From an uncultured virus (IMG/VR IMGVR_UViG_2061766007_002310) (taxonomy: Duplodnaviria > Heunggongvirae > Uroviricota > Caudoviricetes), in IMG/VR virus record IMGVR_UViG_2061766007_002310: a stretch of DNA of 35,583 bases; one strand, 5' to 3'. Below, piece by piece: positions 2,519 through 32,879 of this stretch (within the stretch, counting starts at the first letter, position 1; every line of letters starts with the position of its first letter). The notes under the pieces are model-generated. The model ran no database searches. It was not told where the DNA came from and worked only from the letters and a program-made list of their open reading frames with translations. The translations under genes were made by a program, and so were the position numbers.

Positions 2519-5500
2519 TTACTTGACCGTCGGCCTCTTGTAGCCGAATATGGTCATGTCCTCTTCCTTCTTGACCGTACGGTCGCCCTTCACTTGTTCC
2601 TTGTAGTCACAGCGGTGCTTGGCTACAGACTTGGAACTTAACTTAGTCACATAACTGGAAGTTCCAAGAGCCTTGTGGTTCTTCGCCTTCACATTACCGT
2701 CACGGTCTGCCAGCCAGTCGAGAACCATCTGGACGGTTCCAGCGTCGGTAACCTTGGCCTGGTCGTTCAGAGTGTATTCCACCTTGAAGTCGTTCACGTA
2801 GTTGGCTTGCGTGGTGAACACCCAGAGGTGCAGATAGTAGGTCACGTCATACAGAGGAATATTCAGTCCGTTCTTCTTGAAGTCCTTCTGGAATTCATCG
2901 GTGCAGTGTTCCTCGACATACTTCTCGACCGGAATGCCCTTGGTGGAGGCACCCACGATGTTGCCCTTGTCGTCGACNNNNNNNNNNGATATCATCCAAC
3001 GTAGCGAGGCCGCCAGTGGCAGATACGCTAGGAAGCACGATGTCGATCTTGAAGCCCACGCCGATGGTCTCAGGCAGCTTGCTGGAGTCCGGATTGGTGA
3101 ACTGGACGCTGTACGGCTTCTTGGGGTCGTACTTGTTGTCAGCATAGTACTCGTCGACCTTGTCCTGATCCACCTTCGTTACCGGATGGATGATGGAAAT
3201 GTCGATGTCCTTCGCCTCGTTCATAAGAACTGGGACAGTGTCGGCAGCCACGTTGCCAGCCTTGTCCACGTAACGACGGATGATGTAGTTCACGCCCTTC
3301 TCAAGACGCTGCAGATTCAGCGTGTCCTGGATTTCTCCGTTCACAGTCCACTTGACCTTGACTGCGTTAGTGTTGAACTTCGTCATTGCGATAGGTTCAA
3401 GGATCTCTACCTTCGGCGGAATGTCATCGAAGATGATTTCCACTTCTGCAGACGCCTTGTTGCCGAAATCGTCGACATAGTCGTACTTGACCTTGTANNN
3501 NNNNNNNCGCAGAAGCCTTGTTGCCGAAATCGTCGACATAGTCGTACTTGACCTTGTAGCCGATGTTTCCTTCCTCGTTCTTCACGACCTTCTTCTTGTC
3601 GTCGAGATCATAGGAAACCGTCGTNNNNNNNNNNATCGTTCTTCACGACCTTCTTCTTGTCGTCGAGATCATAGGAAACCGTCGTGCAAGAATCGATCTT
3701 GTAGGACACGTGGTAGTCGGAAATGCGCTGTCCAGTCAAGTTGTCGGTAGTGTAGGTAATCGTGACTTCCTTGCCGCCTTCGGTGGTCTTGTACGTCACC
3801 GTCTGCGTGGTATCAACCGCTTCCATCGTCTTGAGGGTTACAACCTTGGTGATGGTCACGTTCACGCCGTCAACCTTGACAGTCTCCGAGACTTCCGCCA
3901 GACCGCCGCCAATGGGCGTCACGGTGGCATTCTTCTCGTCAATCAGATAGGAATAGTCCTTGACATTGGAAGTCTTCACGGAGACCGTATCGAGCTTCAC
4001 GCCGATATCGAAGTGCTTCTCGGTCTTGTGGACAGTGTCCTTGACGGTCACCTTGAGAGCGTTGACCTTCTTGTTCACGTATATGTGGTCGTCCTTCTGT
4101 TCCTCGATGGTGATGTAGTCGATCAGACCAGTAGTATTGTCGGCATTNNNNNNNNNNNNNNNNNNNNNNNNNNNNNNNNNNNNNNNNNNNNNNNNNNNNN
4201 NNNNNNNNNNNNNNNNNNNNNNNNNNNNNNNNNNNNNNNNNNNNNNNNNNNNNNNCGTTCCGGAAAACTGCAAGAGCTGCATCGTGGGCATCATTACCGC
4301 AACCGATCCGGACAAGGATCCTATCAAGTACGATGTCATCGAGAAGGGCTTCGAGATCGACTCCAACGGAGTTCTCAAGCTGACCGACCCGGTTGACTAC
4401 GAGAAGACTCCTACTGTCAAGGTGACTGTCACCGCTACCGATCCGTCTGGTGCCGCCGACACGATGACCTACACCGTCAAGGTGACCGACATCAACGAGC
4501 CGGTACATGCGAAGGATACCACTTGCTCCGTTGCCGAAAATACCACTGGCAAGACTGGATGCAAGGTTCCGGCTTGGGACGAGGACAATACCAAGCCCAA
4601 GTACATCGTGACCGACACTACTCGCTTCGGTATCGACTCTACTGGCGAGATCATCGTCAAGGAGCCGTATGACTTCGAGAATAAGACCAAGGACACCGTA
4701 ACCGTCATCGTGACCGACGGCGAGTTCTACGATACTGCCACGGTCGTTATCAAGGTTCTCGACGTGCCGGAGAAGGCCGAGATTACAGAAGTCGACCATG
4801 AGCCGAAGAAGGATACAATCAAGACGAATAACCCAGACCACATCATCGATTACCGTATCTGCGAGGACACCAAGTGCGTCATCGACAGCCTTCCGGTTAC
4901 GACCCACAAGGACACCGTGGTCAAGGTCTGCAACGAGAAGAAGACATCTTGCGACCAAGTGGTCATCTTGTTCAACGATGCTCCGCCGGTAGTGCTGCTC
5001 ACAAATGCNNNNNNNNNNNNNNNNNNNNNNNNNNNNNNNNNNNNNNNNNNNNNNNNNNNNNNNNNNNNNNNNNNNNNNNNNNNNNNNNNNNNNNNNNNNN
5101 NNNNNNNNNNNNNNNNNNNNNNNNNNNNNNNNNNNNNNNNNNNNNNNNNNNNNNNNNNNNNNNNNNNNNNNNNNNNNNNNNNNNNNNNNNNNNNNNNNNN
5201 NNNNNNNNNNNNNNNNNNNNNNNNNNNNNNNNNNNNNNNNNNGGTGTCGGTATTTCCGTTGACGTCCTTCACCACGACGAACAAGGTGTCTTCCTTGGTC
5301 TTGTCGTAGTCGAACGGAGTCACGAGTGCCACAGCACCAGTAATAGAATCAACACTATAATGTACAGTGTCTGTACCAATATATCTAACTGGCAGTCCAT
5401 CTTCATCCTCACCTTTGACAGTGCCGATCGGGCCAGTGGTGCGTTCGTCTACGGTGAATGTAGTGTCGTGCGCATGTACGGGCTCGTCCACGTCAAGTAC

Positions 5501-7815
5501 AGTCACCTTCACATCAACCGGAACCACGTTGGTGCCGTCGGACACGTCCACCTTGATGGTGAAGTCCTTCTCGGTCTCGTAGTCGAACGGTCTCGTATTG
5601 GTGATGACGCCGTTGGAATCAATGGTGAACGGAACGTCGTTCTTGATCGTGTATGTAATCTTCTTTCCTTCTGGGTCGGTAGCCACGAGCGTACCGACCG
5701 TATCCACAGCATTTTCCGGAATGGTATAGGTCTTCTTGGTCACTACCGGAGCCTCGTCCACGTCGGCCAACTTGACGGTCACCAGTGCGGTGTCGGCAAG
5801 AGTAGGCGTAGTCTTGTCGGCGACTACGACCTTGAGGACGTACTCGGTAGAGTCCGTCTCGTAGTCGAAGATCTTGGACGTGGTGATACGGCCAGTGTTC
5901 GGATCGATAGTGAACTTGTCTGAACCTTCCACGATGGAATAGACGTTCTTATTGAACTCCGGCTTGGTGTCCTCGTCGGTAGCCTTGAGAGTACCGACGA
6001 TGGTAGGAACCGGGGAATTCTCGCTGAATGTCAGAGTAGTGTCGTTAAGCGACGGCTTCTCGTTCACGTCGATTACAGAAATAGGAATGTAGCCAGTGAT
6101 AGCCACGTTTCCAGTGTCCTTGACTGTCACCTTGATAGTATCTACTGGGGTAGTCTCGTAGTCTACCGGAGTCAACAGTGTAATGACGCCAGTGGTCTCG
6201 TCGATGGAGTAGCGGCCAGTGTATGCGGAGTCCAGATAGAACTTCACGTCGTCGGAGTAGTTGATTACCTTGATATTGTCAACCGTGCCAGTGTAGTTCT
6301 CCTTCTCGGTGTAGACCGCAGTAGTATCGAAAGCGAGCTTGCGAGACACGTCTGCGTCGATGATCTTCACACGGAGTTCGCCGTCGGTCTTGTTGTTCGG
6401 CAAGACTGCGCCAGACTCAATGGAGATTTTCAATACGAGGTAGTCGCTTGGTTCCGTGATGGTATCCTTCTTCACGTTTACCTTGATAAGTTCTGTCGGA
6501 ACCTTCGAACCAGTAGGGATAACCAATGTCTTCGGTGCGTCGGTTCCACAGATAGGGAAATCGGTGACCATGTTGAAGTCGTCTACGGTAACGCCGTCCT
6601 TCAAGTCGAAGCAGTAGTTGAAGTAAACGTCAACGGTAGCGGTATCGGAAAGCTGGATAGGAAGCACGACCGTGGAGTCGTTCTCACGGAGACCGCCTTC
6701 CTTGTTGAGCGTAGGGTCAATGTCGAGTGTGTCCGGATCGAACTTAACGAAACGGAAGTTCTCGCCGTTGAAGGTGTTACCGATTTCGAGCTGGTTCGCA
6801 AGGAGCTGTCCAGCGAAGTCGAGGTTACATGCAAGGTAAAGCTTCTTGGTGGTCAAGAAGGAACCCTGGATAGGCACGTTGTCAGTACGCTCGAAAGTGA
6901 TGTCAGCGTCGGTGTAGAACATGAGGTTGCCACGGTAAGACTTCTGGCTCTGAATGACGTCGCCGTCCGCAGTACGGTACACCACATTGATTGTCGTGTG
7001 GTTACCGATCTTCAANNNNNNNNNNGGCGTCGGTGTAGAACATGAGGTTGCCACGGTAGGACTTCTGGCTCTGGATGACGTCGCCTTCCGCAGTACGGTA
7101 CATCACATTGATTGTCGTGTGGTTACCGATCTTCAAGTCCTTGACGAAGATACGAGTGAGACGTCCGCCGTCTTGCATGCGGATGTACAGCTTGGACCCG
7201 TCAGTACCGCCAACGCCAGTNNNNNNNNNNAGTGTCGTCGCCGTCCGGAATGTCGATGTAGGCAACTCCGTTGTTGGCGCTGATGTAGATGTCGTTATTA
7301 CCAGAGATAGTGTCCGGCCAAGTGATGGTCGGAATGGAAAGCGTAGACGGAGCTTCTGGTACGGTCGAGCTGGTGGTCTCGTACGTACCGCCAGACCGTG
7401 CGATGATGCCCTTGACCGCATCGCCAGGATCGTTCTTGAGGACGACCTCACCAGTGAAGTATGAGCTGTTGTCGTTTCCTATCGTGAGCGAGTTGCCACG
7501 GATAGGGCCGGTGGTGAAATGGTTTCCATCGCCCAGCTTGATATCGCCAGCTACGAGGGTCGGGCCGCCGAGTTTCAGACGGTGTGTGACCGTAAGGTCG
7601 CCTCGTGTGCCGTTCCAACCGGACTTGTCCTGAATGGTAACGTCGTTGCCGATGGACATGTAGTCACGTCCGAACAGCTTGTACTGCAGCATGTACTCGA
7701 ATTCCGCTTGCTGTGTGGCGGAGTCCTTGGCGATGTCGTCGAAGACGAACGGCTTGACGTCGGCTGCAAATACCGACATGGCAAGCGCTAGGAGGAATGT
7801 CAACCAGTATTTCAT
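2519..7815 (-). CDS. Large secreted adhesin-like protein: signal peptide, beta-solenoid-like N-domain, Calx-beta-like domain, several cadherin repeats, Ig-like region and Fibrobacter-type C-terminal domain; fragmented by gaps
   Basis: Signal peptide MKYWLTFLLALAMSVFA; Calx-beta-like LRENDSTVVLPIQLSD...VKKDTITEPSD...IIDAD; repeated cadherin motifs (ENxP, ATDED/ATDPE, FDYET, DVNE/DVDE); C-terminus ...ALGTSSYVTKL...FGYKRP. Pieces at 7231-7815, 7026-7220, 5243-7015, 4256-5008 (inverted), 3635-4147, 2988-3497 and 2519-2977. Confidence 0.85.
4256..5008 (+). CDS. Internal cadherin-repeat segment of the adhesin gene, on an inverted contig
   Basis: VPENCKSCIVGIITATDPD...VDYEK...DINEP...YDFEN...; its end (ACAAATGC, T-N-A) overlaps the start of the minus-strand piece at 4147 (AATGCCGAC, N-A-D). 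Confidence 0.8.
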
Positions 7816-16335: not shown

Positions 16336-16637
16336 TTACTTTATCCACTGTTTCAAGAACTTGGTTTCTTGCTTGACACGGTCAATCGTATTGGCGTTCT
16401 CGTTAATTAGCTTTTGGATAGCATCCTTGTCGTATTCAAGGAACGATTCGTCCATGAGATCACGGATATACATGTCGATCTTGTCTCCGTTGATCTCGCC
16501 GATATTGTTTGCGGTAATTACAAGGATTGTATCGCAGATGTTCAGATCGGTCGGGTAGATGTCGAGACTATATACGAATTTCTTAAGGAAGTCGTTATAG
16601 ATTAGCGATTCGTGCAGAGAGCACTTGGTGTATTCTG
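16336..16637 (-). CDS. 3' part of the gene starting at 13259 (mis-oriented contig)
   Basis: EYTKCSLHESLIYNDFLKKFVYSLD...FLKQWIK*; exact overlap with the end of the 13259 contig. Confidence 0.65.
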
Positions 16638-16647
16638 NNNNNNNNNN

Positions 16648-17371
16648 GATGGCCTTGAACTGCTTGGTGTATTCCGGCAAGATGTCGGCATACGCCTTGG
16701 CGACCACTTCCGGCTTGTTGCGGAAAGCACCGCAGCCGAACGCACCGAGGATAACCACGTCTGCACCGTTCAGCGCAGCCACATTGAGGATCTGGCGAGC
16801 GCGGCTCACGTGGAGCTTGTAGAGTTCGTCGTCNNNNNNNNNNATCCGGGGCCGGTTCACGTTCCTGGTTGTACTTGGAAATATTCTTCTCACGGAGATT
16901 CGGAGCCGCACATGTGATCACGTCGAGATAGACCGTATCGTCGAGCATATCGTAGTCGTCGGTCTTAATCACTGGTACATTGGGCGTGTAGATGATGTCG
17001 TCGTTGTGCAACGGGCCCACGTTCTTCTTGTGGTGCTCGTAGAAGCATTCCACTGCATCCGGAGTAGTGAGACACTTGTAGAGTCCGGAAACACGGCAGA
17101 TGCACTCTTCTTGTGCAGATGAGCCTGTCGTGACACCGCCACCGGGTCTGGTAGCACTTGCGAAATTGAGGATAGCCACCTTGACGGTCGAGTCCGCCTT
17201 GAGAACGGCTCGACCAGCGTCGACGGTACGGTTCCTGGTAAGGCTGATAGAACACGGCGTGTCGAAGCGGTCTGCCATGGGTGCCGGTGCGTCACCGAAG
17301 TAGTACTTCTGTGCAGCGATTGCGTTGTCGATATCCTTCTTAATCGAAGGAGATGCATCGATGGCCTTCAT
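16648..17371 (-). CDS. Bacterial-type poly(ADP-ribose) glycohydrolase / TIGR02452 (DUF2263) macrodomain protein; 3' end lost in gap
   Basis: LNFASATRPGGGVTTGSSAQEE is the PARG signature GGG-X6-8-QEE; ITCAAPN; VILGAFGCGAFRN in the piece at 16648-16833. Confidence 0.9.
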
Positions 17372-24002: not shown

Positions 24003-25070
24003 TTATTCACCTTTAGTTTTTACAATAATACCATTCTGCTTTATAAACGACCCTCGATTAGTTATTTTATCCACCAGTACAATCTTCACATTATTTTGAC
24101 GCATACACTCATATTTTGCTTGCGCTAATGCATCATAGTTTCTATTATATGGATTAATCATATGAGTATTCGGATCAGATAAATTAATATCGCTTGCATT
24201 GTTCTGACCAAAGAAATGGACACCTTTTAATTCTACATAGTCATCACCGACCTTAAAATCTGGATAATAATAGTGTCGTATACTATTATATTCGTATGTA
24301 AAATGTATATGAGGATGATACTCAAATGACTCACCACTATCACGAAGTTTCATATAAAATTGTATCTCTGGGAGCGAATCAAACCAAATATCATCATATT
24401 TATACTTTTTCTTAGCTTTATCAAGTATTGATTGTACATGTTGAGGTATGGTCGTTCCATAACGATCAAATAACGTCGATTTATATTTTTCAGCAATATC
24501 TTCGACGGCATAACCAATTCCACCATATTTTTCAATTAATGAATCAAAAAACTGTTGCTTTAATATTGGTGATTGCATATTATGGGACACATTATACTTG
24601 TCCATCATAGTATCTTGTTGTTTCTTACGTAATTCTGCACTTTCGAAGCCGACACCACCATATCGTTGTACGGTTGTCGTCCTAATTTTTTCTTTTACGG
24701 ATTCTAACTTACCAAAATGATCTACCCCATATTTTTGTATACACGTATTTTTTAATGATTCCTTCCATTCTTTTGTTTGAGAATTAAACGCAACACCATA
24801 TCGTTCTATGTTAGTTTGTTTCATTTTCTCAATAAATTGAGGATCATCATATCGATGCCGCATACTACATGATTTACACATCACTGGAAATGATTTCATT
24901 GACCTTAGCATCAATGTTTTAATTTCTTTACATTCACAGCATACAAACGAAAGATGCTTGTATCCGTTAGCCTTCTTAGGTCTAGCGGATTTCCAAGCAT
25001 CAAAATCCTCTTGCGAGGCAATATCAATAACACTTGACGAATTTGACGAAGTATTCTCGATTGGCATCAT
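24003..25070 (-). CDS. Free-standing homing-type endonuclease: Zn ribbon, (E/K)(R/K)YG helical repeats and a C-terminal PD-(D/E)XK nuclease
   Basis: CCECK...CKSC; six repeats (KQTNIERYGV, KNTCIQKYGV, TTVQRYGG, TMMDKYNV, SLIEKYGG, TLFDRYGT); FDSLPE...YYPDFKVGDDYVELKG; strongly AT-rich. Confidence 0.75.
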   Translation of the reverse strand: MMPIENTSSNSSSVIDIASQEDFDAWKSARPKKANGYKHLSFVCCECKEIKTLMLRSMKSFPVMCKSCSMRHRYDDPQFIEKMKQTNIERYGVAFNSQTKEWKESLKNTCIQKYGVDHFGKLESVKEKIRTTTVQRYGGVGFESAELRKKQQDTMMDKYNVSHNMQSPILKQQFFDSLIEKYGGIGYAVEDIAEKYKSTLFDRYGTTIPQHVQSILDKAKKKYKYDDIWFDSLPEIQFYMKLRDSGESFEYHPHIHFTYEYNSIRHYYYPDFKVGDDYVELKGVHFFGQNNASDINLSDPNTHMINPYNRNYDALAQAKYECMRQNNVKIVLVDKITNRGSFIKQNGIIVKTKGE

Positions 25071-25896
25071 AATAGTCTTGCCATATTTTTGTGACTAATT
25101 CAAGGGTATCATCATCGGTTTTATCCATTTTGATTTTATTTTTGTGCTTTGGTGACGCAATCGCAACATTTTCAGCACCGATATCCGCAATAACTTCGTA
25201 ATCATTACTTTTACCAGCACGTGCGATCCATTCACTCATAAAATACGACGCCCAACCCAATAAAGTTTGATTACCAGTTAACGTATTTGGCGTATCCATT
25301 CCAGTATTAAATGACAGTATGCGAAGCTTACCTACATACTCAGAACGTTTAAGGCCAGCATTCAATACAGCAATAGGGCTATTCGCCCAGCAACCACCAT
25401 CAATATACGTATTACCGTTAGTTTCAACCACATCAAAGTATGTTGGTGCGGCTGCGCTTGATAGCAAAGCTAGACTTTTCTTGACTTTCTTGTCGCCCAA
25501 GTCCCAAACCTTTTCCACGCTCTCGCCGTTGGTGTGCGTAGTGGGGATAAAGATGGGCTTCTTCCAGTCGCCCACGTATCCACGGAACTTCTTCTCAAGG
25601 AGTTCCTTGAGGTAGGAGTTGTCGTAGGTAGGGCACGACGGCTGCAGACGCTTGTACCAGGAATACTTGGTGAAGATTTTCTTCAAGTTCTCACGGTACA
25701 GCTTGTAGAGGTCATGTGCGGAATATCCTTCGTCGAGGCCACCGGCAATGATTGCTCCAGTGGACGTACCGGCAAAGGCCACGGCGATATTGCCGAGTTC
25801 CTTGCCGACATCTTGTTCAAGACGTTCCATGAAGGCGAGAGGCCCGATACCGAGCGCACCGCCGCCATTGATACTGATAGCTAAGTAGGGTCTCAT
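25024..25896 (-). CDS. Patatin-like phospholipase
   Basis: GGGALG oxyanion loop, GTSTG nucleophile elbow, SAAAPTYF and the catalytic DGG (IDGGCWANSP). Confidence 0.92.
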   Translation of the reverse strand: MRPYLAISINGGGALGIGPLAFMERLEQDVGKELGNIAVAFAGTSTGAIIAGGLDEGYSAHDLYKLYRENLKKIFTKYSWYKRLQPSCPTYDNSYLKELLEKKFRGYVGDWKKPIFIPTTHTNGESVEKVWDLGDKKVKKSLALLSSAAAPTYFDVVETNGNTYIDGGCWANSPIAVLNAGLKRSEYVGKLRILSFNTGMDTPNTLTGNQTLLGWASYFMSEWIARAGKSNDYEVIADIGAENVAIASPKHKNKIKMDKTDDDTLELVTKIWQDYYDANREYFVKFVKCY

Positions 25897-29740: not shown

Positions 29741-30459
29741 CTTTATCTCCTGATAGAAGTTTGCTCACTGCAAATACAAATTCGTTCTCGGCTTCCACAA
29801 GCTCGCCGTCGTTCGTAATAACCGCATCCCAAGGTTTCCTGGCCTCGAAGCAGTTGAACTGTCCGTCCTCGTCGGCACTGCGCTTGTCCCACGTGGTGGT
29901 GTCGCCATTGCGAGCGTTCGCACGTTCACGGCGGATCTCGTCGCTAGTCTTGACATAGATCACCTTCATATTGAAGTCGCCATTGAACTTGCTGCAGAAG
30001 TCGTAGCCGTTAGGGTCGATCGTGTAGAAGATNNNNNNNNNNGTTGCGAGCGTTCGCACGTTCACGGCGGATCTCGTCGCTGGTCTTGACATAGATCACC
30101 TTCATGTTGAAGTCGCCCTTGAACTTGCTGCAGAAGTCGTAGCCGTTAGGGTCGATCGTGTAGAAGATGGTGTCGCCGTCGAGACGGTTGAGCATTTCAA
30201 CGGTAGAGCAGTAACGGAACCCGGTGTCACCGATCTTCGTGTAGGCGAACACGTTTTCCTTGGCCAGCACCTCATCGAACATGTCCTTCGTGAGGAACGT
30301 ATGCTCTACGCCGTCTGTTTCAGTGGGTCGCATCGGCCTATCCGTATAGGAAGGCACCGACACTATTTTGTACACGTCCTTGAACACTTCCTTGGCGTGG
30401 CGGATCAGGGTATCCTTGCCAGAGCCAGAGCGTCCAATAACCAAAATAAGATTCTTCAT
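29721..30459 (-). CDS. gmk: Guanylate kinase-like protein (internal duplication at the 30033 gap; alternative 3' end at 29133-29264)
   Basis: P-loop GRSGSGKDT; SYTDRPMRPTETDGVEHTF is the GMP-binding signature. Confidence 0.88.
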
Positions 30460-30499
30460 GTTAATCCCAATCTCCGGGTTCGTTGTGAGAGGTTCCAAG

Positions 30500-30760
30500 C
30501 CAAGCACGCTTGCTCGGACTCTGCCTCATAAAAGGTATATAAAAGTATAGACGGAATTGTCTATGACTTAAATATAACAATTTATGGTTGCGTTAACAAC
30601 TTGGTTCCATAGACGATTGAAGAAATCGTCCACCATAGCCGCCCTACCGTCTCTGGTAAGTAAGCGATGAGCATCAACCTCGGTAGTTTCACCAGTTCCC
30701 GAAAGGGAAGAGGCCAGAGCTACCAAGTCCGCTGGCGTGAATTTCCGACGGGCAATGTCG
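30500..30760 (-). ncRNA. Putative TnpB omega/reRNA scaffold plus guide (5' boundary approximate)
   Basis: Inferred from the established location of TnpB guide RNAs over the ORF 3' end and right end; terminal hairpin ATAGAC-AATTCC-GTCTAT; the guide would start at 30520 (AGTCCGAGCAAGCGTG). Confidence 0.5.
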
Positions 30761-32106
30761 GTATTAAAACGGTTATTTAGTTCATTGAACAAGGCTTCCG
30801 CGAGGATGTTAATCGCGGCATTGGTATCCCTATCGATAACCAATCCGCATTCCTCGCAGATGAACTCTCGTTCAGACAATGAAAGTTTTTCTTTCACATG
30901 TCCACACCCGGAACATTTCTTTGAAGACGGGAAGAACCGTCCTACTTTCAAGAGCATCGTTCCGTACTTGGCACTCTTGTATTCTAGGAACCTACGGATC
31001 ATGCCAAATCCGCAGTCCGAAATTGCAGACGCCAACGTGTGGTTGGACACCATGCATTTTACGTTTAAGTCCTCTATAGCGACAACCATATTGTGCTTGA
31101 CAATCTCGGTCGTCGCCTTGTGTATCAAGTCCTTACGGTAGTTCTTGATATATGTATTTTTCTTGTTAAAAGTCTTCTTGATGTCCTTGTAATGTACTGA
31201 ATTATACATTCTTCGAGACATCATTTTCTGATATCGCTTAAGTCTTTTCGCATGCTGGAGGAGAAGTTTGTCATTAGCTACTTGCTCTCCAGTAGACAGC
31301 TGCATCAGAGTCTTGATACCCATATCGATACCGACAAGACCATTTTCAGTAGTACCATATTCTACATTGATGTCATCATACGTATACGAAATGGATATAT
31401 ACCAGCAATCATTGCTTCCCTTAGATACTACGAAATTATTGATTTTTCCATGCAAGCATTCTTGATTGACTGGTTCGGCCAATCTAACTGGCCTAGGTAT
31501 CTTCGGCAACTTGATGTAGTATTCATCACTCAACCTTGCTTTGTCGTTCTCTATATAGAACGAACGCTTGGAATTGTATTTCTTTCTCTTAGGAAAGCCA
31601 AACTGTTTAGGATTTTCATAATGACGCTTCTTAGCGAGAACGAAGTTCTTGATAGCGCGAGCCATCGAGCCCTTCGGGCTCTCGTACATCCAGTCAGTCT
31701 TCTGTGCGTTGAATTCCTTGCACAGTTCTTCACACGTTACCGATGCTTGGCCAGCCTTCTTCTTGTCAAACCATGTGTCCCTAGCCCAATTATATGCATA
31801 TCTAGCACAACCGCACGCACGGTTCAATGCGCTTGCTGTCTTGCTATCAACTATCAACATTATCTTCTGAGCGGTCGTTATCATACATACAAGAAATGTC
31901 CCGGCAACGCCTATTGTGGAATTTAACGCTGCCGAGACATCCAAATCGCTAATGTTTATTAGAACAAGAAATTCCACTAACTTGTGCTAATATATGAAGT
32001 TTATATCTGTCTATTAGTAAAATAGAGTTCTTTTGTTTTATGACTTACATTTTTTTTTTACATTTCAATATATTTATATATGTTTTCGTCGATTAGATAC
32101 TATCTA
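30521..32106 (-). mobile_element. Non-autonomous TnpB element (IS607-like ends, no transposase), inserted in a small gene
   Basis: Minus-strand junctions GTGAAG|TAGATAG... and ...GAGGCAG|AGTCCG; removing it restores the reading frame; AT-rich ends share TAAGTCATA (30562-30570 and 32039-32047); no long terminal IR or target duplication beyond a shared AG. Confidence 0.78.
30568..31884 (-). CDS. tnpB: RNA-guided endonuclease TnpB (438 aa from the likely start)
   Basis: GCARYAYNWA N-terminal motif; GFPKRK; RuvC-I VGIDMG, RuvC-II IEDLNV, Zn finger CSGC...CEEC and RuvC-III DRDTNAAINI all intact. Confidence 0.93.
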   Translation of the reverse strand: MITTAQKIMLIVDSKTASALNRACGCARYAYNWARDTWFDKKKAGQASVTCEELCKEFNAQKTDWMYESPKGSMARAIKNFVLAKKRHYENPKQFGFPKRKKYNSKRSFYIENDKARLSDEYYIKLPKIPRPVRLAEPVNQECLHGKINNFVVSKGSNDCWYISISYTYDDINVEYGTTENGLVGIDMGIKTLMQLSTGEQVANDKLLLQHAKRLKRYQKMMSRRMYNSVHYKDIKKTFNKKNTYIKNYRKDLIHKATTEIVKHNMVVAIEDLNVKCMVSNHTLASAISDCGFGMIRRFLEYKSAKYGTMLLKVGRFFPSSKKCSGCGHVKEKLSLSEREFICEECGLVIDRDTNAAINILAEALFNELNNRFNTDIARRKFTPADLVALASSLSGTGETTEVDAHRLLTRDGRAAMVDDFFNRLWNQVVNATINCYI

Positions 32107-32404
32107 CTTCACGGGTTCATAGCCGTCAAGTTCCTCGAAGTACACCGAGTTGAACCAACCGACCAGTTCAGACACCTTCACGAGAGTATACCAGCTGTCG
32201 ACGTGTACGTCCACCACGTTATATTCAGTGCCGACAGAAAGCATGCTAGGGTTNNNNNNNNNNGGATCGTCCAATAACCAAAATAAGATTCTTCATGTTA
32301 ATCCCAATCTCCGGGTTNNNNNNNNNNNNNNNNNNNNNNNNNNNNNNNNNNNNNNNNNNNNNNNNNNNNNNNNNNNNNNNNNNNNNNNNNNNNNNNNNNN
32401 NNNN

Positions 32405-32664
32405 CCTTCAAGTTCCTCGAAGTACACCGAGTTGAACCAGCCGACCAGTTCAGACACCTTCACGAGAGTGTACCAGCTGTCGACATGTACGTCCACCACG
32501 TTATATTCAGTGCCGACAGAAAGCATGCTAGGGTTTCCGCCGACATTGTAAGGCATCTCGTCATTGCGGACGCACTTGACCTTACGAGGCTGTGCATTCC
32601 AAATATCGAATTCGGTGAGTTTCGGATCGCAGATTTTAATTTCTTCGCTCATGTTTTTCCTCAT
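32405..32664 (-). CDS. Small hypothetical protein targeted by the TnpB element (empty-haplotype copy; inserted allele at 32104-32253 with orphaned tail at 30461-30520)
   Basis: ...RKVKCVRNDE...LSVGTEYNVVDVHVDSWYTLV...WFNSVYFEEL in both copies. Confidence 0.7.
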
Positions 32665-32879
32665 TAACGACGATTCGGGTTTGGGTGGCCCGGTTTGACA
32701 TTGGGCACACCGAGACGGTGAGCCTTCTGGGAGACAGCGGAGACGCTGATATTGAACAGCTTTGCAATCTCAGTATAGGTCAATCCGTCAGCAATGTACT
32801 TCAACAGACGTTTTTNNNNNNNNNNCGAACTCGGTGAGTTTCGGTTCGCAAATGTTAATTTCTTCGTTCATTTTTAACC

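Follow-up and report, generated by a model that had tools for sequence, protein, structure and literature searches.

A TnpB/guide-RNA insertion element without its own transposase, probably of IS607 affinity, is polymorphic in a rumen phage population

The window analyzed here is the whole 35,583-nucleotide (nt) stretch of IMG/VR virus record IMGVR_UViG_2061766007_002310, a metagenome scaffold of a cattle-rumen phage in which an insert carrying a tnpB gene interrupts a small DUF6501-like gene. Read along the minus strand, the order is the small gene, the 1,586-bp insert (30521-32106), 57 nt plus a stop codon in the small gene's frame, one base, and the ATG of a guanylate-kinase-like gene (Table 1). 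The scaffold contains 42 runs of N (2,812 N in total) and 25 near-identical, strain-variant duplicate pairs, mostly flanking a 10-N gap; the scaffold therefore strings together at least two strains of one phage. At the interrupted locus, 32264-32317 is a second-haplotype copy of 30428-30480 (98%), and the sequence from 32405 onward is a second-haplotype copy of 32123-32253 (97%). A preliminary description, made from the letters of the window, had read the insert as a TnpB element lacking a transposase, with a target-adjacent motif (TAM) of approximately (G)TGAAG and a guide taken from its right flank.

Table 1. Features of the interrupted locus, in window positions
Feature	Position	Strand	Remarks
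Guanylate-kinase-like gene, downstream	30010..30459	-	Pfam PF00625 4.3e-09; ATG 30457-30459
Orphaned tail of the DUF6501-like gene, SPSKRAWLGTSHNEPGDWD plus stop	30461..30520	-	tail present in 9/9 full-length homologs
Predicted guide template and target, AGTCCGAGCAAGCGTGCTTG	30501..30520	-	directly 3' of the right end
Non-autonomous TnpB/guide-RNA element	30521..32103	-	left boundary 32103 if the preceding TAG is a TAM remnant; 32106 on the boundaries of the preliminary description
Guide-RNA (omega/reRNA) scaffold	30521..30765	-	overlaps tnpB 3' end; ends ...UUUUAUGAGGCAG; 13-sequence alignment
tnpB, 438 aa	30568..31884	-	ATG 31882-31884, stop TAA 30568-30570; sole long open reading frame of the insert
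Left end and 5' leader	31885..32103	-	terminal palindrome 32094-32106; variable AT-rich stretch; ATAAACTT box 31997-32004; hairpin arms 31969-31977/31916-31924
TAM position	32104..32108	-	AGTAG here; family consensus (A/T)GGAG; empty allele AGGAC
Interrupted DUF6501-like gene, 3' part, filled haplotype	32107..32253	-	ends ...EELDGYEPVK
Second haplotype beside the first	32264..32664	-	kinase start 32264-32317; 87-N gap 32318-32404; small gene, ATG to ...FEELE, 32405-32664

The insertion cuts a conserved C-terminal tail off the small gene. Excising 30521-32106 joins ...EELDGYEPVK to SPSKRAWLGTSHNEPGDWD*, whose stop (30461-30463) lies one base ahead of the kinase ATG; coordinates, fusion, and stop position were all recomputed as the preliminary description had given them. 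On the gene strand, the first three bases of the insert (32104-32106) read TAG and supply the stop of the truncated gene. The Pfam match to DUF6501 (5e-05, 23.5 bits against a cut-off of 23.8) was obtained on the second-haplotype copy of the gene. None of nine homologs ends at EPVK. In the related phage record L006, whose protein is 59% identical, the genes follow the same order and the small gene is intact, its 106 aa ending ...GYEPVK-D-SPSKRAWLGTPQPGDWD*, and the eight homologs returned by a database search with the L006 protein all read ...PVK-D-SPSK(R/H)AW... plus tail, so that the Asp after PVK is invariant in L006 and in 8/8 of these. The corresponding codon (GAC) is present in the empty site and missing from the filled allele; thus the tail is lost, as had been stated, but at a cost of 20 residues rather than 19.

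The DNA of the tail has itself been conserved: window 30461-30520 and L006:3280-3332 are 78% identical over 59 nt, despite 59% protein identity for the rest of the gene, and by our own reading of the sequences the predicted guide target is identical at 19 of 20 positions, with one mismatch. L006 also carries, between the small gene and the kinase, a 143-aa Cys/Trp-rich open reading frame with a hydrophobic stretch (L006:3297-3728), which the window phage lacks, the two genes abutting there.

Both alleles of the locus are found in public sequence data. Comparing 30043-32253 with Logan contigs from four bovine-gut or gut runs, we found both filled junctions bridged by contigs of runs X1 and X2, which rules out misassembly of the insertion. 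One contig in X2, from the same sample as the best-matching run, and one in X3, which belongs to another study, connect 30520 to 32107 and omit exactly 1,586 bases. Their shorter sides measure 34 letters (X2) and 30 letters (X3); in the X3 contig, the 30 nt beyond the right end are unchanged. A 206-letter contig of X3 also extends 30 letters into the right flank, one short of the 31-letter bridging rule. Between the two sides, both empty contigs have GTC on the plus strand, an Asp codon (GAC) when read in the direction of the gene. This makes the natural empty site GTGAAG-GAC-AGTCCG, as in L006. Thus, an empty allele exists in X2 and X3, and in X2 it co-occurs with the filled one, but the junction GTGAAG^AGTCCG that had been predicted was not found, GAC standing between the flanks, and the empty distance over the 87-N gap would be 59 nt (40+3+16) instead of the predicted 56. 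The insertion is polymorphic within the phage population.

The same runs hold further variants. In X3, a single low-depth contig (4.5) joins window 30747-30869 to 32166-32253 through 9 shared bases, so that the guide-RNA end meets the small gene at a point 60 nt past the left boundary. No X3 contig covers the middle of the element, and the joining contig may be either a unitig chimera or a decayed allele in which the guide-RNA end alone is left. Loose ends at 30520-30532 and 31945 in X1, X2, X3, and X12 point to more copies of the element in other flanks and to an element variant whose left ~160 nt differ from 31945 outward. A blastn search of the region against 50,697 phage records returned zero matches.

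The insert encodes a TnpB that, as judged from its sequence, is intact. Its Pfam matches are Cas12f1-like_TNB (PF07282, 3.4e-22), OrfB_IS605 (PF01385, 1.8e-16), and HTH_OrfB_IS605 (PF12323, 2e-05); the RuvC residues D189, E273, and D353/D355 and the two CxxC pairs C326/C329 and C345/C348 are invariant in alignment A1. The matching Protein Data Bank entries are ISDra2 TnpB (3e-42, 148 bits) and 8iaz, the TnpB of the IS607 element ISFba1 (2e-28, 102 bits). The 8iaz alignment shows a D371A change, and by our own count its numbering fits ISFba1 at an offset of 3. No transposase accompanies the nuclease, as had been proposed: the insert has one long open reading frame, and neither Y1_Tnp nor Resolvase matched any of the 76 other window open reading frames of at least 90 aa. 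In every copy with a visible left end, 33-215 nt separate that end from tnpB, which leaves no room for a transposase (TnpA), so that the element can be at most a non-autonomous derivative of IS607.

The leader contains a hairpin (window 31916-31977, minus strand), conserved as GTGGAATTT...AAATTCCAC downstream of the conserved ATAAACTT box; compensatory changes in the subfamily of L002, L003, L007, and L010 turn it into GTAGGATTT...AAATCCTAC. A group I intron, the 5' feature of an IStron, was sought in Rfam with no intron match, and the leader is merely ~220 nt long.

On the evidence of covariation, the last ~245 nt of the element fold into a guide-RNA scaffold ending exactly at 30521. For the supporting alignment we took the last 250 nt of 13 elements, among them three TnpB-less mini-elements that have little sequence in common with the rest. 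Of the 47 pairs in the consensus structure, 23 show compensatory changes. Paired cells make up 93.9%; shuffles give 83.3%, with 0 of 500 attaining the observed level, and sliding the partners lowers the share to 29-55%. Six of the seven helices covary, and a covarying hairpin lies ~26 nt from the right end. A long-range helix with the terminal UUUUAUGAGGCA is invariant, and covariation neither supports nor refutes it. Rfam gave no match at E up to 1 over 30000-32700, and hence none to any RAGATH-18 model among its families, and over 30480-30830 it returned a chance match alone (traJ_5, E 0.95). Rfam 15 includes a RAGATH-18 model.

The position of the guide follows from the boundary. Close copies of the element (86-92% protein identity), for which the preliminary description had suggested a search, sit at unrelated sites in other rumen viral and metagenome contigs. 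Nine of nine copies with a right end finish ...TTTTATGAGGCAG (GAGGCAG) and then diverge, so the right boundary at 30521 is exact, and it sets the position of the guide template, which would start AGTCCGAGCAAGCGTG..., as the preliminary description had held. We infer that the flank AGTCCGAGCAAGCGTGCTTG would be used as the guide. The empty allele matches this flank over at least 30 nt.

The left boundary can be read from the same relatives. In alignment, the counterpart of the window's left end, TAGATAGTATCTAAT, is GAGATAGTATCTAGT in L004 and L009, and L003 and L002 carry close variants. All six clearly bounded relatives have (A/T)GGAG immediately preceding the left end: AGGAG in L004, L003, and the TnpB-less mini-element L172, and TGGAG in L009, L002, and the mini-element L179. 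TGGAG also precedes L007, which has a different left end; TGAAG precedes L010, whose left end is without the first 12 nt; and the window copy is preceded by AGTAG. The right end is GGCAG in every copy, so that the left flank (GGAG) and the right end (GCAG) have their last two bases, AG, in common and differ at position -3. If the left end starts ATAG at 32103, the core dinucleotide before it is AG in all nine copies; placed where the preliminary description had it, the core would be AG in four of seven relatives and TG in three. Our reading is therefore that the insert's initial TAG forms the end of a degenerate TAM. A TAM of (G)TGAAG is thus unlikely, TGAAG probably lying three bases too far out, and the case shows that predicting a TAM from a single junction can miss by a few bases. 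For neither L003 nor L002 was the right flank found in the five other phage records searched for each; hence, the TAM boundary has been checked against an empty site at the window locus only.

A scan of viral contigs with a left-end 14-mer hit at least 112 loci, with one real left end, resembling that of L004, among the matches listed. The right-end pattern scan gave 13 loci, of which L167, L168, L170, L173, and L174 were set aside for want of further similarity.

We consider it probable that the insert has its affinity with IS607, as a non-autonomous insertion element that carries TnpB and a guide RNA but no TnpA; its lineage has so far been found in rumen phage contigs only. Elements of this kind are already known, and the window copy is a new member. 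First, the flanks fit. According to the experiments of bioRxiv 10.1101/2023.11.20.567912, the IS607 element CboIStron has the TAM TGGG, the right end TCGG, and the core GG, with position -3 giving self/non-self discrimination; AT-rich TAMs are described there as typical of IS605. PMC11061315 gives AGGAG as the measured TAM of IS607 TnpBs from 18 of 22 strains. As far as sequence goes, the shared-AG pair GGAG/GCAG is supported as an instance of this published IS607 pattern. Second, the relatives fit. Among the best 80 bacterial relatives (30-49% identity), a serine TnpA of the MerR-Resolvase type, or part of one, stands immediately upstream in the same orientation in 17, a Y1 transposase in 3, and neither in 60. 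A quick maximum-likelihood tree kept 68 of the 80 bacterial rows (12 were dropped for length or ambiguous residues) and placed the phage family inside a 25-row set (Shimodaira-Hasegawa-like approximate likelihood ratio test, SH-aLRT, 97) with six serine-linked rows and no Y1-linked rows, the latter grouping elsewhere. Y1_Tnp was found in 0 of 5 related phage records; Resolvase gave four matches in two of these five, each beside a different TnpB. The flank pattern, the serine-linked relatives, and the quick tree thus bear out the IS607 affinity and the common AG dinucleotide that the preliminary description had proposed. Of the features that define an IS607-type element, then, the grouping of TnpB with serine-linked TnpBs and a G-rich TAM sharing its last two bases with the right end are present here, and a serine TnpA encoded within the element is absent; for RAGATH-18 and for the group I intron that would indicate an IStron, Rfam gave no match.

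Several observations weigh against this interpretation. No serine TnpA with matching ends was found, the window and the related phage records included, and the guide RNA matches no curated Rfam family. The tree comes from a quick, incomplete search, and the branch leading to the phage family is long (1.67). By sequence, the closest solved structure is that of the IS605 element ISDra2 and not that of ISFba1, and of the ISFba1 positions that contact the TAM, the equivalent of N121 alone is kept (in a low-confidence alignment, by our own count). TGAAG recurs at the L010 junction, and CGAAG at L175, a solo right-end remnant. Finally, the filled allele reads AAG-TAG/element/AGT and the empty allele AAG-GAC/AGT, a difference of two substitutions in 3 nt, or of a 3-nt deletion on the boundaries of the preliminary description, and clean transposition explains neither.

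A transposase-less IS607 derivative would have entered by means of a serine transposase acting in trans and recombining at the AG core within an (A/T)GGAG-like site, here AGGA-C/G in the Lys-Asp codons. AGTAG may then have arisen through the donor core, a point change, or both, which would also have created the stop codon. As bioRxiv 10.1101/2023.11.20.567912 reports, integration by CboTnpA at cores that do not match leaves bases of the donor in the left junction, and the C-to-G difference at position -1 could be such a donor core dinucleotide; the second substitution, G to T at position -3, is the one that creates the stop. Alternatively, the target may have been a rare Asp-to-Glu allele (GAG). 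The boundaries of the preliminary description instead need a 3-nt deletion of the target together with a G-to-T change in the left end. Complete IS607 elements in the related records G004 and G006 were considered as mobilizers in trans and rejected because their ends are unrelated in the aligned pair.

After insertion, TnpB would carry a guide derived from the flank AGTCCGAGCAAGCGTG... and would cleave other copies of this flank that lie next to a TAM. Cutting of the empty joint by TnpB is described for CboIStron (bioRxiv 10.1101/2023.11.20.567912). The natural empty allele, however, has AGGAC at the TAM position, or a 3-nt spacer between TGAAG and the target on the boundaries of the preliminary description, and on neither view does it form an ideal joint of TAM and target. 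Homing into it today is therefore doubtful, barring tolerance of C at position -1 by this TnpB. For ISFba1, PMC11061315 states that any single change in the TAM abolished cleavage; if the window TnpB is as strict, the extant empty allele would be refractory. We infer homing between co-infecting phages as a possible route of spread, one weakened by the nonconsensus TAM position.

The model of the preliminary description puts the left end at 32106 (TAGATAG...), the TAM at (G)TGAAG, and the target at GTGAAG^AGTCCG, and has the element homing by RNA guidance between co-infecting phages today. It draws on the facts that the flank common to the filled and empty alleles ends at GTGAAG, that both alleles occur in one sample, that TGAAG and CGAAG recur at L010 and L175, and that TnpA-independent spread driven by TnpB is in print as a category (PMC13565253). 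We nevertheless judge it unlikely. The junction that it predicts was not seen: the empty contigs, L006, and 8/8 homologs carry the extra Asp codon, which would put its TAM and its target 3 nt apart. Its core would be divided between AG and TG, against a uniform AG on the boundary that we prefer, and the left ends of L010 and L175, at which the motif recurs, are truncated.

Still less probable is an IS200/IS605 element of the IS1341 type, which a Y1 transposase would mobilize in single-stranded form by way of subterminal hairpins. ISDra2, an element of the IS200/IS605 kind, has a Y1 TnpA and the T-rich TAM TTGAT. The best solved match of the window protein is ISDra2 TnpB, a palindrome lies at the left tip and a covarying hairpin near the right end, and the 3' end of tnpB lies within the guide scaffold, as in IS605. 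Y1_Tnp is nevertheless missing from the window as from the related phage records, the three Y1-linked bacterial relatives fall outside the clade that holds the window family, and the flank motif is G-rich, whereas IS605 TAMs are typically AT-rich according to bioRxiv 10.1101/2023.11.20.567912. That TnpB and a fixed guide are kept as a domesticated weapon, cutting competitor phages with an intact gene (marker exclusion) instead of spreading, is the least probable of these readings and very hard to credit, for although nuclease and scaffold are intact and the 20-nt target is conserved in DNA across the divergence from L006, the family occupies many unrelated sites with unrelated guides, as is typical of a mobile element, and the TAM position of the natural target is nonconsensus.

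The family to which the TnpA-less element belongs has a characteristic siting. In 8/8 other close TnpB copies, and in L175 and L177, the ATG of an open reading frame of at least 65 aa lies 0-11 nt past the right end; the habit fails for L169, L179, and L172. Given this spacing, the TAM would be the ribosome-binding site of the downstream gene, and the right end would bring a replacement GAGG. Siting between ribosome-binding site and start codon would be a neat form of harmless insertion, and our literature search found no paper on it. The window copy is atypical: it lies within a Lys-Asp codon pair that contains AAGGA, and the next ATG follows only after 59 nt.

The TnpB-less mini-elements, ~470 nt long, lie in rumen phage contigs at L172:1850-2319 (plus strand), L179:1359-1818 (minus strand), and L177:977-1243. 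They share the right-end terminus, the GGAG left flank, and a scaffold structure homologous to that of the window element, with a very different sequence, and on these sequence features they are candidates for guide-RNA-only parasites of TnpB. Among the loci retrieved, no partner TnpB for them was found; the TnpBs L200 and L201 of record G004 were considered and rejected, there being no DNA similarity, and a scan for mini-elements returned two known copies and no others. L012, with TnpB, and L177, without, have as right flanks the start codons of homologous genes (MFNELPDKDYT... and MIERRLPEQDYI...) on different contigs. The solo remnant at L175:2268-2319 (~52-69 nt, preceded by CGAAG) lies 8 nt before a gene start. 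More broadly, the large rumen phage records G001-G004 and G006, which stand behind L001-L004 and L172, hold 1-8 TnpB zinc-ribbon matches each (25 in the five), including four IS607-type pairs of serine TnpA and TnpB (three in G004, one in G006) and TnpA-less families such as L200 and L201.

Taken together, these observations allow a bolder reading, which we regard as speculative and rather unlikely: a phage-specialized TnpB/guide-RNA lineage that serves RNA-guided homing or marker exclusion among co-infecting jumbo phages, inserts almost harmlessly between a ribosome-binding site that doubles as TAM (GGAG) and a start codon while bringing a replacement GAGG, is parasitized by guide-RNA-only mini-elements, and meets at the window locus empty alleles that are TAM escapes held in place by the invariant Asp codon.

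Elsewhere in the window lie auxiliary genes for a microbial PARG (16598-17371), a patatin-like lipase (25027-25896), and a cadherin-domain protein (4853-6922), together with dUTPase fragments, a NUDIX protein, and a Clp protease fragment.

The locus matters because it offers a natural, sequence-resolved TnpB element that is polymorphic in a phage population. Its two junctions are known, as are the real empty site and a predicted 20-nt guide, so that TnpB-driven homing between viral genomes can be tested directly. In PMC13565253, TnpB-driven, TnpA-independent spread between homologous molecules, such as homing between co-infecting phages, is a theoretical category, and it is only in this form that we found TnpB homing between viral genomes in print.

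It is useful to compare the element with known systems. Like the ISFba1 group of IS607 elements (TAM AGGAG; Ren et al., Cell Res 2024, PMC11061315; 8iaz), it would combine an RNA-guided RuvC nuclease with a guide after the right end and a G-rich motif at the left end. It differs in that it has no TnpA, encodes 438 aa against 387 aa, resides in phages, and is only weakly similar (2e-28); its scaffold overlaps the open reading frame and has no Rfam match, and the TAM-contact residues are mostly unconserved. With CboIStron of Clostridium botulinum (Zedaveinyte et al., bioRxiv 10.1101/2023.11.20.567912) it shares a common core combined with a TAM/right-end difference at position -3, TGGG/TCGG there and GGAG/GCAG here. 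By contrast, it has no group I intron (by Rfam), no TnpA, and an AG instead of a GG core, and its insertion is not spliced out but truncates a gene. ISDra2 TnpB (8h1j, 8exa), the best solved match, has the same domain order and a scaffold that overlaps the 3' end of its gene, whereas the relatives of the window family are linked to serine TnpA and the flank motif is G-rich. Finally, the free-standing homing endonuclease genes SegB and MobE of T4-like phages are likewise nuclease genes that lie between conserved genes and are polymorphic among related phages, and the likeness may extend to spread or exclusion in co-infection. The window element would differ from them in recognizing its target by an RNA guide and a TAM.

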